A stretch of 64,000 bases of DNA. It comes from an uncultured Chthonomonadaceae bacterium (GTDB lineage Bacteria > Armatimonadota > Chthonomonadetes > Chthonomonadales > Chthonomonadaceae). The position numbers were made by a program, and so were the translations under genes. Positions within the stretch are counted from its first letter, which is position 1. Each line of letters starts with the position of its first letter. Where the stretch lies: positions 864,001-928,000 of the forward strand of contig CAWFQB010000001.1 of the NCBI GenBank assembly GCA_963817895.1, read 5' to 3'. Below the pieces are notes generated by a model. That model made no database searches, was not told where the DNA came from, and saw only the letters and a program-made list of their open reading frames with translations. Below, one piece after another: positions 1,745 through 54,451 of the stretch.

Positions 1745-1880
1745 GGTAGGTAGATGGGTAGGTAGGTAGATGGGTAGATAGGTAGTCAAAAGCGGCTTGC
1801 TCTTGTTGCATAAAAGCATAGAGCAAGCCGCTTGTTTCTCTACCTATCTACTCATCTACCTACCTACCCATCTACCTACC
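1745..1880. repeat. Tandem-unit hairpin element (GGTAGATG/GGTAGGTA arms)
   Basis: 41-bp arms 1745-1785 and 1840-1880 are 40/41 complementary; inner IR AAGCGGCTTGCTC/GAGCAAGCCGCTT. Confidence 0.95.
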
Positions 1881-2530
1881 AATAGTACGTCCCATACGGC
1901 GTTTCCTGGTTGCCGATGCGGGGCGTCCACTCGTACCAGGGGAACCAGCGGGGCGGGCCGATACGGAAAACCGGTGTTCGGCGCTGCTCGTAAGGCGTGT
2001 TCACATACTCGTCATCGTGTCCATTGCGGGACAGTCCCGCCGCCTGCGCCTGCGAACTCGTAGGCGTTTCCTTTGCCGTCGCGGGCGGTCAAGTCCATGC
2101 GCTTCAGCGTGAGCGGAAGAGTTTTGCCCTGATACGTCCACGCGCCCTTGATTTCGGTCATGGCGCGATTGGCCGTACCCTCGAACGCGCTGCCCGCCGT
2201 TTTGGAACTCAGGGATACGTGATTATCCTGTATAGTGAAGTTGTCCACCAGAACGCTGTATGGCGCTTGCGCGGACGTAACCATATTGCCCATCAAGCCT
2301 TCGCTGTTCGGACGCTTCGAGACCTCCAGAACCACGCGGCGCGACCCTTCCGAGGTGCGCAGCATCCCCTGCCACATCCCCTCGTAACTATTCGACAACC
2401 CCGCAGCGGAGCGATCCATCTTATTTTCTGTTTGCATCGTATCGGAATGAGACGCGGATTGCGCCTGCGTTGCCGTCGTTCCTACCGCGCCCAAGGCGCA
2501 CAGCAGCGAAGCCAGTATGATTTTTTTCAT
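1876..2530 (-). CDS. Secreted hypothetical protein (probable frameshift near 2040)
   Basis: Signal peptide MKKIILASLLCALGAV. An alternative frame continues GLSRNGHDDEYV...YGTYYW to TAG at 1876. Confidence 0.6.
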
Positions 2531-2691
2531 GGGTGTTACCTCTTGGTAATGTTCGCGTAAATTGCCAGTGGAACAACGCCGTTTATCGCCGTCGTTCACT
2601 TACCTGTAAAGACTTCCTGACCCCTCCAATTGGTTCCAAAAAGATTCCGTCTGTAACCTGCGCTTCTGCATTAAAGCCTGTTGTATGGTAC

Positions 2692-2871
2692 TCAGGAGTG
2701 GAGAGTTTTCAGCCATACGATGATGACCAACACGGTGATAGAGGGAGAGATCATCATCAGGAATGGGATGGGCTGCCAGCCTGCCATAACACTGAATGGA
2801 AGGATAGCCAGGATCAGCGCGAACAAAACCGCTAACCGAATTGTCAGAATTTTACGCTGTTTGTGCGGCAT
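2692..2871 (-). CDS. Small two-TM membrane protein (59 aa)
   Basis: MPHKQRKILTIRLAVLFALI..., two hydrophobic segments, directly after the ankyrin gene. Confidence 0.5.
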   Translation of the reverse strand: MPHKQRKILTIRLAVLFALILAILPFSVMAGWQPIPFLMMISPSITVLVIIVWLKTLHS

Positions 2872-2900
2872 CGCGCTCCTGATGGCTTGCGCCTGCACTT

Positions 2901-3752
2901 TTACTTTGCGCCCGCCTGCTTTAGCAGCAAGACAATCCGGGCATTGGTATACCGTTTTGCGAAAACAAGAGCCGTTTCTCCGTCTTTGTCTTTTGCGTTC
3001 ACGTTCGCGCCGTGATGCAGCAGAACTTGCACCGTTTTGTAATCCGCATGAGTGTGTGAATAGCAGGCAGACATGAGCGCCGTGAAGCCATACTTGTTTC
3101 TGGCATTGACATCCAAACCCTGCTTCAACAACGATTGGATAAGACCATTGTTGCCCATATTGACTGCGCCCATCAGAGAGGTATTGGCGTAATCGTCTCT
3201 GGCAAACACATTCGCGTGACGCGCCAGCAGCAAAGGAACAATATCGCTGCGGTTGTCCCACATTGCCAGTAGCAAGGGAACCTTACCGATTCCTTGCGCG
3301 TTCACATCGGCTCCCGCTTCGATGAGCGCCTTAATCAGCGCGGTATGGCGCGGGGGAAGCCTGACATCTGAGGGACAATCCAGTGAGGTATTGAGCGCGA
3401 CATTCAGGGCGGAAACCGTTGTTTTGCTGCGCCGTTGTATGGCTTCGCTTTCCGTTTGCGGCGGGCCGAGGTTCATGTGTTTCGGTCGAAGGGGCCAGGT
3501 ATTTTGCGTATCCATAGAATACAATTCATCGCCCGTCATTGGCTTGTACCGCGCGTTCGGACTGGCTCCCTGCGCAAGCAGACGAACAACATCATTGGTT
3601 TTGTTGAATTTGATCGCGGTAATCAGCAGGGCGTCTTTTTGCTGCTGGCGGATGTCCTCCTGGGTAGCCCATGTTGTCGTTTCCAACAGCAACAGCAATA
3701 ACAGGATGCCTGCGATACCCGGGAGTTTGAACAAGCCTTTTGACATTTGCAT
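2901..3752 (-). CDS. Ankyrin-repeat protein with signal peptide
   Basis: Repeated GADVNA/GANVNAKDKDGETAL motifs. Confidence 0.9.
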   Translation of the reverse strand: MQMSKGLFKLPGIAGILLLLLLLETTTWATQEDIRQQQKDALLITAIKFNKTNDVVRLLAQGASPNARYKPMTGDELYSMDTQNTWPLRPKHMNLGPPQTESEAIQRRSKTTVSALNVALNTSLDCPSDVRLPPRHTALIKALIEAGADVNAQGIGKVPLLLAMWDNRSDIVPLLLARHANVFARDDYANTSLMGAVNMGNNGLIQSLLKQGLDVNARNKYGFTALMSACYSHTHADYKTVQVLLHHGANVNAKDKDGETALVFAKRYTNARIVLLLKQAGAK

Positions 3753-52644: not shown

Positions 52645-53282
52645 TTATTGCCGCTCGTTACTCCTTCAATGGCGGCGAGGAAGCCGTTGCTTCTCAATAT
52701 CCGCATCTGCTGGCAGAAGTGGAAGCGGCTATTATTGCTGTTGATGCCGAACAACACCGCATCAAACAGAGCAAAGAAAAGACAATGATGGGACAGATGC
52801 TCTACAGTCCCGTATCCTTAAACGCGGCAATCAAGCAAACTTTGTTCGCTCAGGATTGGACGGCGAAGCGCGTGGAGTGTCTCTATTCCAGCGAGTATTA
52901 CACCGAAAACTATCGGAACACGGTTACGGAAAACATCGGCTTTCGCGAAATGGATTTTGTGAAAGAGCATCTTGGCGTTGAAGTGCAGTTCGGCAAATAC
53001 TCGTTTATGGTTTACAATGTCGCCGCGAAAATGACCATCTTCCGTAATCTCGGACATATCAACACCGGCATTGAGGTTGTTCCCGTCAAGCAGTTCGCTT
53101 TGCAAATGAGTTCCGGCGTATCGTACTTCGAGCAGTTTACATGGGATTTGGAACAACGGGGCGTTTCTAATATCGACGTGCCGGTGCTGATATTAGGCAT
53201 TGACAGCGAAAAGGGAACAGAAGGCAAGCGCCCGCGCAAACGAGTCATCAAAACGGCGGCAGAAGATGTTCCGAACATCTGA
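52641..53282 (+). CDS. BglII/BstYI-family restriction endonuclease
   Basis: EMDFVK..VEVQFGKY (ExQ active site); overlaps the MTase stop. Confidence 0.88.
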   Translation: MIIAARYSFNGGEEAVASQYPHLLAEVEAAIIAVDAEQHRIKQSKEKTMMGQMLYSPVSLNAAIKQTLFAQDWTAKRVECLYSSEYYTENYRNTVTENIGFREMDFVKEHLGVEVQFGKYSFMVYNVAAKMTIFRNLGHINTGIEVVPVKQFALQMSSGVSYFEQFTWDLEQRGVSNIDVPVLILGIDSEKGTEGKRPRKRVIKTAAEDVPNI

Positions 53283-53314
53283 CTTGCCGTTGACAATTTG
53301 GGAGAAAATAATTT

Positions 53315-54361
53315 ATGAGAGCAATGATTCTGGCAGCCGGGGTTGGATCACGGCTGGACCCGCTGACGCGCAATGTGCCGAAACCGCTTGTGCCGATTAT
53401 CAATCGGCCCGTGATGGAATACCTTGTCCTGCTGCTCAAACAGCACGGCTTTCACGACATCATGGTCAACGTCCACTATCTGGGCAACGTGATTGCCGAT
53501 CATTTCGGGGACGGCAGCAAGTGGGGCGTCAACATCCACTGGTCGCGCGAAGATGAACTGTGGGGCGACGCGGGCAGCGTGAAGCGCGTACAGGAGTTTT
53601 TCCAGAACGAGACGTTTCTGGTCATCGGCGGCGACGACCTGACGGACATGGATTTAACCGCTGTCGTGCAGACGCACAAACAGAAGCAGGCAACGGCAAC
53701 TCTCGCGCTTTCCCTTGTGGATGATCCGAGCGAGTACGGCATCGTGCAGTTGGACGACAACAGCCGGATCACGCGCTTTCTGGAAAAACCCAAAGGGGAA
53801 GTGTTCTCCAAAACCGCCAATACGGGCGTGTACGTGTTCGAGCCGAGCGTGTTCGATCTGATACCCGCGCATACGTTTTTCCTGTTCGGCAAGCAGTTGT
53901 TCCCGCTGCTGATGGAAAAGGAACTGCCGATGTACGGGCATATCACGGAAGCGTACTGGAAGGACGTGGGCAACGTCAAAGTGTACAAGCAGACGCAGCG
54001 CGACGTGCTGGAAGGGCAGGTCAACGCGCTTTTGCCGCTGCATCAGGCGGGTAAAAACGTGTGGAAGGGCGACAACGTTGTCATGGATCCGAGCGTGACG
54101 TTGGGTTCGCCCGTCGCAATCGGCAGCAACGTCACTATCGAAGCGGGCGCGACCATAGGCGACAACTCCGTCATTGGCGACAATTGCCGCATCGGGGCAG
54201 GCGCGACAGTACAGGATACGATTTTGTGGGAGGGCGTGACAGTAGGCGCGGGAACCCATCTGGAACGCTGCATTGTGGGCAGAAACGTTCAGATACAGAC
54301 CAATGCCGCCATTTTCGACGGCATCATCGCCGATCCCAACCGTCCCATGTCGGCAAAATAG
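53315..54361 (+). CDS. NDP-sugar pyrophosphorylase (mannose-1-P guanylyltransferase-like)
   Basis: LAAGVGSRLDPLT..PKP, FLEKP, hexapeptide tail. Confidence 0.9.
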   Translation: MRAMILAAGVGSRLDPLTRNVPKPLVPIINRPVMEYLVLLLKQHGFHDIMVNVHYLGNVIADHFGDGSKWGVNIHWSREDELWGDAGSVKRVQEFFQNETFLVIGGDDLTDMDLTAVVQTHKQKQATATLALSLVDDPSEYGIVQLDDNSRITRFLEKPKGEVFSKTANTGVYVFEPSVFDLIPAHTFFLFGKQLFPLLMEKELPMYGHITEAYWKDVGNVKVYKQTQRDVLEGQVNALLPLHQAGKNVWKGDNVVMDPSVTLGSPVAIGSNVTIEAGATIGDNSVIGDNCRIGAGATVQDTILWEGVTVGAGTHLERCIVGRNVQIQTNAAIFDGIIADPNRPMSAK

Positions 54362-54397
54362 TTCGCGCATTTTCCGCATACGAATGAGTTATTGTAG

Positions 54398-54451
54398 GTA
54401 GTTCGTAGTTCCTGCATATCTATCAACTACGAACCATCAACTATCAACTAT
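54398..54451. repeat. Short tandem-unit hairpin (GTAGTTC / CTACGAA, CTATCAA)
   Basis: Heptamer runs. Confidence 0.7.

Follow-up and report, generated by a model that had tools for sequence, protein, structure and literature searches.

We describe here a family of hairpin elements found in a 64,000-nucleotide (nt) stretch of DNA (hereafter the window; positions 864,001 to 928,000 of contig CAWFQB010000001.1) from an uncultured Chthonomonadaceae bacterium, and throughout the genome to which it belongs. The arms of these elements are runs of tandem units of 7 or 8 nt, with a G-rich arm on the 5΄ side, a C-rich arm on the 3΄ side and a spacer, nearly always unique, between them. Our results indicate that the elements are gene-less, fast-turnover relatives of the stem-loop insertions known from ribosomal RNA (rRNA) as intervening sequences (IVS). 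More broadly, we consider it probable that they are the gene-less members of a class of stem-loops, armed with tandem 7-8-nt units, that includes the IVS, gene-bearing cassettes and the repeat pairs of Xanthomonas and Geobacter, and that in this class the stems are processed and the blocks of units are written in trans.

A genome-wide family with fixed polarity

Arrays were called with Tandem Repeats Finder (TRF), taking rows at score 30 or above. Throughout, G000 stands for the genome of the window (7.48 Mb, 57% GC, 14 contigs, 81% complete), G001 and G002 for two congeners and G003 for a member of a second genus. Across G000, TRF gave 1,406 rows of period 7 and 643 of period 8 with at least three copies, and 187, 228 and 39 such rows for periods 6, 9 and 10, respectively. 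Contig C1 alone gave 332 rows of period 7 and 159 of period 8, against 7 and 4 in a third-order Markov copy of the same contig. With overlapping TRF rows merged, the set holds 1,969 arrays (62,336 bp) in 1,232 clusters, which span 86,099 bp or 1.15% of the genome. The repertoire comprises 223 unit types, 57 of them with five arrays or more, and the top 12 units account for 1,121 of the 1,969 arrays. An initial annotation, made on the window, had proposed a window-wide family of inverted 7-8-mer arrays; tabulation of units and polarity over the whole genome confirms it at that scale, and all eight units that it named were found in the window. Its list of elements stands in large part: both arms have TRF rows in nine of its ten double-armed elements, that at 54398 having a row for the right arm only, and among its seven single arms those at 8977, 9776, 26657 and 36193 have rows, those at 27424, 39111 and 45374 having none and being degenerate by eye.

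The polarity seen in the window holds genome-wide and is far from random. In same-unit inverted pairs lying within 400 nt the G-rich arm is 5΄ in 395 of 400 cases, and only six same-unit direct pairs exist in the genome. The rule extends to neighbouring arrays no more than 100 nt apart, complementary or not (600 G-then-C, 5 C-then-G, 39 G-G and 56 C-C), and C-first pairs occur in just 3 of the 61 unit families having any pair. Single arms (n = 576) follow it as well, with a complement of at least 10 nt on the expected side in 148 and on the other side in 11. Since the reverse complement of a G-arm, a spacer and a C-arm reads in the same order, polarity is a physical property of the element, independent of strand; in about 99% of cases it is the C-poor strand that enters the dyad in the 5΄ to 3΄ direction, the composition of G-type arrays being 31% A, 5% C, 41% G and 23% T.

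Arm length is equally constrained. Of 1,346 period-7 arrays, 600 fall within a sharp peak at 30-32 nt, and the period-8 peak lies at 33-38 nt; about 4.4 units per arm result in either case, and these modal lengths bear out the three to five units per arm first noted in the window. Phase is constant within a family, as in AAGGATG, where 84 of 98 runs begin at one base and the outer flank is GCA at 59-69% per position. Spacers have a median of 28.5 nt and are indeed unique: 342 of the 381 that reach 20 nt resemble no other spacer, and 281 of the 298 that reach 30 nt have no other match in the genome. A single whole-element family, with 13 members, has both arms and spacer in common. Spacers do not look like captured filler, just 17 of 298 matching elsewhere in the genome, and a master template locus found no support, arrays of at least 48 nt (41 of 2,388) being dispersed and mostly impure.

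The 21-mer (GAGATAC)3 lies at 116 loci or more across many phyla, with a modal length of four units, and a C-type array was found downstream of it at 21 loci and upstream at 6. Viral contigs had it at just three loci. Four public metagenome runs contain 5-7% of the words sampled, all of them on contigs of relatives about 90% alike that end at arrays, and so are uninformative about variation in this strain.

Layered arrays and turnover at orthologous sites

Many elements are not simple palindromes. Among 540 simple G-then-C clusters, 370 have complementary arms of about 30 nt and 170 do not, and where a stacked element has a single paired layer, this is the outer layer in 13 cases and the inner in one. 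Stacking is directional: in the ordered pairs listed, GAGATAC takes the inner place 33 times and the outer place twice, and AAGGATG stands outside seven other units. Purity differs as well, the inner array being the purer in 41 comparisons and the outer in 24, with 7 ties (p 0.009). Layering is consistent with successive rounds of addition beside the spacer, and the rounds of remodelling suggested in the initial annotation are thus backed both by the directional stacking and by the purer inner arrays.

Array density varies greatly among relatives. Per 10 kb there are 2.6 arrays in G000, 1.1 in G001 (35 in 320 kb), 6.9 in G002 (54 in 78 kb) and 4.1 in G003; 12 relatives were array-free in samples of 14.5-40 kb, and four more had 0.5-0.75 per 10 kb. 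Architecture and polarity in the two congeners are those of G000, with 9 G-then-C neighbours and no other kind in G001 and 14 G-then-C and no C-then-G neighbours in G002, and the favourite units differ. Alignment of orthologous loci, which yielded examples and not a tally, revealed both empty sites and unit switching. Two sites in valS carry an insert in G000 and in both congeners, with different units each time, and are empty, in a short form, in four other genera. The site at 49708 holds AGGGAAA/GAGATAC in G000 and AGGGAAC / GAAGACA / TGTTCCC in G002; that at 29519 holds GTAGGGA in G000, a TAGGCAT hairpin in G002 and a plain hairpin in G001. In G002, furthermore, four different arrays occupy the 48466 site, CTATCAA-type units the 36193 site, and CCCAACA x4 the place matching 26657. 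Pairs of filled and empty sites were also found: L142:1787 of G001 is filled and its counterpart C1:1440116 of G000 is empty, and L147:8307 of G002 is filled with the unit GACTACT and C6:213347 of G000 is empty, a local CCTACTT there resembling the unit. The spacers of valS site 2 retain a GGCGAT(T)AC remnant. The valS region is present twice in G002 (C69:35108-38444 and C43:69516-74238), and several stop codons interrupt the frame of the C43 copy in its 5΄ part, which points either to a duplicate in decay or to an artefact of assembly.

These data bear on slippage, the alternative that survives best, although we judge it unlikely. Heptamers are the commonest long simple sequence repeats, and slippage is the only mechanism proposed in print for them (Mrazek et al. 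2007, as cited in PMC4692102 and PMC4679880; here and below, statements on these two papers and on PMC4990558 and PMC2700814 refer to excerpts of them). Heptamers would arise locally at native hairpins such as terminators, a length of about 7 nt fitting the polymerase, and quasipalindrome template switching would mirror one arm onto the other, with need for neither dedicated machinery nor dispersal. The plain hairpin that G001 has at 29519, where G000 and G002 have arrays, would fit such an origin, as would the array ends that resemble ancestral local sequence and the heptamer number that differs among Coxiella strains (PMC4990558). Slippage predicts, however, a broad spread of copy numbers and locus-specific units, whereas one unit in one phase, at about 4.4 copies, is repeated at more than 100 loci, and all four units of both arms change together between species at orthologous sites. 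It is also at odds with the arms that do not match in 170 of 540 clusters and with the many close relatives, the majority, that are array-free despite having the same replication machinery, and simple slippage gives no basis for a polarity of 99%.

Link to rRNA intervening sequences and four-helix-bundle genes

The kinship of the elements with IVS rests on 23S rRNA and on a gene family. In both 23S genes of G000, the loop of a helix at Rfam large-subunit (LSU) positions 1206-1226 contains an insertion of about 107 nt that consists of TAGGGAT x2.6 and its complement. Loops of helix 25 or helix 45 are typical places for IVS in 23S rRNA; judging by the E. coli sequence immediately 5΄ of GGUAGGGGAGCGUU, we take the present helix to be helix 45, the classical site. 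GGGGAGT-unit and TAGTCAG-unit insertions occupy the same site in G001 and G002, and no insertion at these positions was found in G005 or G013.

The second link is provided by PF05635, the four-helix-bundle 23S-rRNA-IVS-protein family. The two PF05635 genes of G000 are both bracketed by arrays, a G-array on the left and a C-array on the right, and the arms belong to families that also form gene-less hairpins. One of them is the GGTAGATG family, which surrounds the four-helix-bundle gene at G000 C1:1459284-1459589 and makes up the window hairpin 1744..1880. Over G000 and its relatives, 13 PF05635 loci were inspected, those of G000 included: eight are bracketed, two have one arm, two are complex and one has none, and the reversed bracket (C-left, G-right) occurs in 0 of the 13. 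The loci inspected include some in genomes otherwise without arrays. Because both PF05635 genes of G000 are bracketed by arrays, we conclude that the elements, including those of the window, which lie outside rRNA, are gene-less relatives of rRNA IVS. The initial annotation had offered footprints of small genes flanked by inverted repeats as one possible origin; genes so flanked do exist, and the gene-less hairpins are not visible footprints of cassette deletion, because their spacers match nothing else and there is no excess of distant G..C pairs.

The likeness extends to structure. Like the rRNA IVS of Coxiella, Leptospira and Salmonella (PMC4990558), the elements are stem-loop insertions with terminal inverted repeats and a stem of about 28-30 bp; they fill the helix-45 site in G000, G001 and G002, some copies have a PF05635 gene between their arms, and they are sporadic among relatives. 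In Coxiella the IVS has a 28-bp terminal stem that RNase III cuts mid-stem, and its 5΄ part, the 5΄ arm, contains tandem GACAGAT heptamers whose number varies between strains (PMC4990558). Unlike the IVS, 99% of the copies described here contain no gene and are located elsewhere than in rRNA, their spacers measure 5-130 nt, their arms consist wholly of tandem units of dozens of families, and some are in frame within protein genes.

Search for a mobile element or a writing enzyme

We found no sign of an element that transposes. Direct-repeat lengths at 362 hairpin ends equalled those of re-paired flank controls, giving no evidence of target-site duplication; G..C pairs of one unit at distances of 150-8000 nt do not outnumber other orientations genome-wide; 43 candidate full-length elements mostly surround ordinary genes; and no transposase was found enclosed in the elements. 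Together with the 223 unit types and the unique spacers, the lack of target-site duplication agrees with the view of the initial annotation that this is not one transposing miniature inverted-repeat transposable element (MITE).

The search for a writer was no more productive. The only reverse transcriptase (RT) of G000 belongs to a type XIII retron with SWIM and WGR/HEAT partners and was rejected as writer; RT genes are present in 13 of 31 genomes, and the array-rich G003 (79% complete) has none. Y1 transposases, including those of REP-associated tyrosine transposase (RAYT) type, were rejected as drivers, none of the three Y1_Tnp genes of G000 having arrays within about 1 kb on both sides and 23 of 31 genomes having Y1_Tnp irrespective of array density. 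PF05635 was likewise set aside, since the family is missing from G001, where arrays number about 1.1 per 10 kb, and since samples of 20 kb are array-free in G027 and G028, which have 6 and 5 PF05635 matches, respectively. Of the trans-acting writer first suggested for the window, then, the expected traces, rounds of remodelling and unit switching, are seen, and no enzyme was found among these candidates.

A weaker alternative to slippage is that each unit family is a non-autonomous MITE moved whole by a DDE transposase, a Y1/RAYT-type transposase, as for REPINs, or the four-helix-bundle protein of the gene-bearing cassettes. Several observations are of the kind that it would produce, namely the 13 elements with common arms and spacer, the defined outer end and GCA flank of AAGGATG arms, gene-bearing cassettes with the same arm families, the three Y1_Tnp genes and single-family hairpins at sites that hold other hairpins in G001. 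We nevertheless regard it as very unlikely, since spacers are nearly all unique (342 of 381) though the arms are near-perfect, target-site duplications do not exceed controls, there is no excess of same-unit G..C pairs beyond 150 nt, and neither the Y1_Tnp genes, unflanked and widespread, nor the PF05635 counts, which mismatch the arrays in G001, G027 and G028, follow the distribution of arrays.

Three other loci touch on mobile elements. The type XIII retron lies in locus L169 (G000 C6:128001-140000), where positions 4735-11753 hold RT_XIII, SWIM_XIII with BRCT, and WGR/HEAT-ARM_XIII; the 112-nt gap between SWIM and RT is a GGTAGATG-type hairpin, at the place where the retron non-coding RNA might be expected. 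Inverted arrays of one unit, 1.1-1.2 kb from each other, surround ORFs (open reading frames) of 300 and 182 aa at G000 C3:336273-337417 and C2:121358-122596; the N-termini of these ORFs are transposase-like by eye, and each locus may represent an insertion sequence that entered a hairpin spacer. Insertion sequences at fixed distances from paired sites have been reported in Geobacter, as described in excerpts of the literature consulted.

Genomic context and copies inside genes

Intergenic hairpin clusters (n = 479) prefer gaps between genes on the same strand, with 384 same-strand, 52 convergent and 43 divergent cases against about 318 : 77 : 83 expected from all gaps (3,178 : 769 : 833). The initial annotation held that most elements abut stop or start codons. 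This is so for stops, 258 of the 533 edges that face a gene 3΄ end being within 3 nt of the stop codon, and much less so for starts, with 52 of 496 start-facing edges within 3 nt. Two functional readings were rejected. The elements do not look like canonical terminators, as no T run follows any of the 11 window elements. Nor do they look like stop-codon insulators, in which a C-poor 5΄ arm would supply stops in every frame of both strands and so account for the period of 7 or 8 and for the polarity: stop triplets are not enriched in G-type units (965 of 2,316 arrays, against 932 +/- 20 in within-unit letter shuffles; 118 of 377 distinct units, against 118 +/- 7), and families free of stops are still G-first (GAGATAC 56:0, GGAGAAAA 20:1).

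Copies inside genes are fewer than chance would give, 103 of 618 hairpin clusters lying in frames that are open through the element and coding-like on both sides, compared with 733 of 2,000 random positions. All of the 20 largest of these 103 frames have Pfam domains; their hosts include four AcrB-type transporters, PEP (phosphoenolpyruvate) carboxylase, alpha-2-macroglobulin, a rhamnosidase and an S9 peptidase with two inserts. Complementary arms are found in 21 of the 103 elements inside genes and in 368 of 515 elsewhere; when only open-frame elements are considered, the figures are 21 of 103 and 149 of 259 (Fisher p 7e-11). Stem formation is therefore apparently selected against in coding RNA.

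The least probable explanation, and in our opinion a very unlikely one, is that the elements are selected cis-regulatory sites whose architecture reflects function and not mode of origin, whether regulator- or RNA-binding sites (as for Geobacter and Beggiatoa), G-quadruplexes (as for Xanthomonas and Nostoc) or bidirectional terminators: the same-strand enrichment, the abutted stop codons, the annotation of the Geobacter sites as regulator sites (PMC2700814) and the about four units that are the minimum for a G-quadruplex (PMC4692102) would suit it, but a sequence-specific binder is difficult to reconcile with the free replacement of units at orthologous sites, GAGATAC, the commonest unit, contains no GG tract, T runs are lacking after the window elements, copies lie also within ORFs and 23S rRNA, and most close relatives have none.

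A model for the renewal of the hairpins

We thus return to the reading that we favour, of gene-less IVS relatives whose stems are processed and whose blocks are written in trans. At the RNA level, we infer that the stems, of about 30 bp, are either tolerated or processed, and that selection acts against them in ORFs. The RNA of complementary elements would fold into stems with the dimensions of an RNase III substrate; such a stem would be excised from rRNA, and in operon transcripts it would be either cleaved or tolerated. Stem processing of the RNase III type would explain the selection against stem-forming arms in coding regions.

At the DNA level, the elements may be renewed by a trans-acting copying process that is centred on the dyad and needs no transposase of their own. 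Whole blocks would be written on the strand whose synthesis proceeds into the dyad, and the second arm would be mirrored by snap-back copying or written separately. New blocks lie beside the spacer, within the older ones; sites stay occupied from species to species as units change, and the blocks, of about 4.4 units in a fixed phase, come from a limited, species-specific repertoire. Such block writing on the dyad-entering strand fits all the rules described above.

Several points weigh against this proposal. The gap in purity between inner and outer arrays is modest (0.936 and 0.897). Array ends sometimes merge into the ancestral local sequence, as at L147:8307 and at valS site 2, and local seeding fits this as well as microhomology-guided copying does. 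The 13-member family means that some copies move or convert as whole units. Across 30 relatives, the counts of the candidate writers, Y1 transposase, RT and PF05635, bear no relation to array density, and a single RNase III-family domain, in a 156-aa open frame, is present in G000. In-gene stems are not always purged, valS having two strongly folding complementary hairpins. Finally, the figures for gene context come from our own crude gene calls, and the Pfam check of intragenic frames covers the 20 largest of 103.

A more specific form of the proposal is that a lineage-specific DNA-writing activity, telomerase-like or a reiterative polymerase, heals breaks or stalls at palindrome centres by adding to each 3΄ end about four copies of a C-poor 7-8-nt unit taken from a small repertoire of templates. 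We think this decidedly unlikely. If it were true, one step would give the 99% polarity, the phase, the copy number, the mismatched arms, the stacking with younger blocks inside and the rewriting of sites, and it would also account for the origin of rRNA IVS and of bacterial heptamer repeats.

Elements of the window and neighbouring features

The elements of the window are listed in Table 1. Nine of the 11 that were folded do so far better than shuffles (z -6.5 to -19.5); those at 9776-9844 and 48466-48536 lack a good fold because their arms are not complementary.

Table 1. Tandem-unit hairpins, pairs and single arrays of the window (MFE, minimum free energy; z, relative to shuffles; x, copies).
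Feature	Position	Strand	Units	Folding	Context
Complementary hairpin	1744-1785/1839-1880		GGTAGATG-type, ~4.9 and 4.8 copies	MFE -109.9; z -19.5	Begins 2 nt past end of Omp85-domain ORF (1230-1742); spacer is a perfect small hairpin in its own right
Complementary hairpin	6592-6627/6672-6722		TTAGGTTG x4.6 / ACCTAACA x4.9	z -8.5	Occupies gap between lumazine synthase ORF (6109-6582, -) and ribBA ORF (6723-8057, -)
Complementary hairpin	8246-8277/8303-8336		AGGGAGT x4.6 / TCCCTAC x4.9	z -10.1	Upstream of ORF 8351-9871
Single G-type array	8977..9007	+	GGAGACAA x3.9		Within open frame 8351-9871
Non-complementary G-then-C pair	9776-9793+9818-9844		AACAGGG x2.6, TCATCCC x3.9	z -1.4	Close to 3΄ end of open frame 8351-9871
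Single C-type array	26657..26689	+	CCCAACG x4.7		Within LptD-like ORF 25248-27230
Complementary hairpin	29519-29551/29579-29608		GTAGGGA x4.7 / CCTACTC x4.3	z -10.6	Begins within stop codon of ORF 28821-29522, ends 12 nt before DUF3084 ORF; spacer belongs to the 13-member family
Mosaic element, four arrays	31266..31394		Outer AAGGATG x3.4 / TCATCCT x4.1, complementary; inner AGGGAAG x4.4 and CTCTCAA x4.3, not complementary	z -10.3	
Single C-type array	36193..36223	+	ACCAGCC/ACCAACC, ~4 copies		Adjoins end of ORF 36219-37679 (-)
Complementary hairpin, valS site 1	43693-43722/43776-43810	+	GGAGAAAA x3.8 / TCTCCTCT x4.4	MFE -51.8 kcal/mol; z -8.9	In frame, ~residues 574-615 of ORF 41966-45358
Complementary hairpin, valS site 2	44668-44702/44758-44791	+	AGAGGGGG x4.4 / TCTCCCCC x3.4	MFE -81.8 kcal/mol; z -12.9	In frame, anticodon-binding domain, ~residues 902-942
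Non-complementary G-then-C pair	48466-48495/48507-48536		AAGGATG x4.3, CTCGTAT x4.3	z 0.0	
Mosaic, three arrays, open frame	49708..49818	+	Outer AGGGAAA / CCCTCTT-CCCTTTT, complementary; inner GAGATAC x4.6 without partner	z -6.5	Inside ORF 49292-50293 (nucleotidyl-transferase domain)
Weak element	54398..54451		Left arm, two imperfect units; right arm CTATCAA x4.6 (54420-54451)	z -3.6	Between ORFs 53315-54361 and 54470-55114

The window also holds repeats of other kinds. At 5700-6080, a 34-nt terminal inverted repeat of 10-nt units (CGCGAATACA) surrounds about 310 nt without a Pfam match. A loose pattern of this unit has 150 matches in the genome, with neighbours 80-480 nt apart in plus-then-minus order 17 times and in minus-then-plus order 4 times, and arrays of its type are nested within GGAGAAAA hairpins in G002 and G000. 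An inverted pair of arrays of about 8-10 nt, CGCAAAGGGG / CTTTGCGCCC, lies at 10918-11028, downstream of an M48 peptidase ORF. Around the ribBA start, at 8004-8027 and 8115-8138, there is a G/C-rich 24-nt palindromic repeat, GGGAGAGGGGTCGGGGGTGAGGGC, with its complement; a similar motif is found near G000 C14 555229, and we regard it as a separate family resembling repetitive extragenic palindromic (REP) sequences. A dispersed repeat of about 60 nt at 41211-41270, with dozens of matches 81-98% alike in G001 and G002, is unrelated to the tandem-unit arrays. Among the neighbouring genes, 40676-41047 (-) matches an XisI-family gene, 54470-55114 (+) a Uma2-family endonuclease gene and 61645-63543 (+) an AAA_21/AbiEii-like ATPase. 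From 60 kb to its end the window is AT-richer (47% GC), and the third of these ORFs lies there.

Resemblance to other repeats and significance

Heptamer repeats of bacteria have been noted since 2007, and rRNA IVS have been known since about 1990. The closest counterparts outside rRNA are the GGGAATC repeats of Xanthomonas, which form 70-75 convergent pairs per genome, of about four units, and vary between species (Rehm et al. 2015, PMC4692102). With these and with the GGGGA(C/T)T repeats of Nostoc (PMC4692102) our elements have in common a period of 7, a preference for about four units and an intergenic bias; the convergent pairs of Xanthomonas amount to the same G-first polarity, and there too the same sites vary in length and sequence between related species. 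In both of those systems, unlike the 223 unit types found here, one unit dominates, and the excerpts of Rehm et al. (2015, PMC4692102) do not deal with stacked mosaics, stacking order, non-complementary pairs, in-frame copies or a link to rRNA and IVS. Also similar are the paired tandem-repeat sites of classes 1-3 and the four-heptamer elements of Geobacter metallireducens (Aklujkar et al. 2009, PMC2700814), with three to five tandem 7-9-nt units, mostly in opposite-strand pairs at a variable distance, and dozens of copies between and inside genes. Unlike our elements, these are read as regulator-binding sites, and the excerpts of that work make no mention of polarity, of turnover or of copies in rRNA.

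A looser resemblance is to the heptanucleotide long simple sequence repeats (LSSR) and the short tandemly repeated repetitive (STRR) sequences of cyanobacteria, with which the elements share an excess of period 7 in non-coding DNA of scattered lineages; the works on them (for the LSSR, as cited in PMC4692102 and PMC4679880) treat single arrays, of which the inverted architecture, polarity and block-wise replacement form no part. The initial annotation had named the cyanobacterial STRR as an analogue. By taxon the analogy fails, as no PsaA/PsaB match was found in G000 (81% complete) and a Synechococcus control did match, and the resemblance is in kind only. The palindromic elements of Rickettsia, which it had also named, are like ours small palindromic repeats that occur in frame in protein genes and are translated; they differ in being conserved sequence families, not tandem short units, and we know of no link between them and rRNA or four-helix-bundle proteins. 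In a literature search that was thin on subscription journals, we found no statement of the polarity rule, of multi-family stacking, of unit switching at orthologous sites or of the identity of such hairpins with IVS.

What do these elements mean for the biology of their hosts? The genome analysed here ties the heptamer repeats of bacteria to rRNA IVS: one kind of hairpin occupies 23S helix 45, brackets four-helix-bundle genes, lies in intergenic gaps and is inserted in frame in valS, PEP carboxylase and transporters of the resistance-nodulation-division (RND) type. In practice, the arrays break short-read assemblies, add translated low-complexity peptides to conserved proteins and can mislead the annotation of gene ends. 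The quantitative rules that they obey, of polarity, block size, stacking, switching, depletion of stems inside genes and patchiness among relatives, can discriminate between mechanisms and guide the search for the factor involved.

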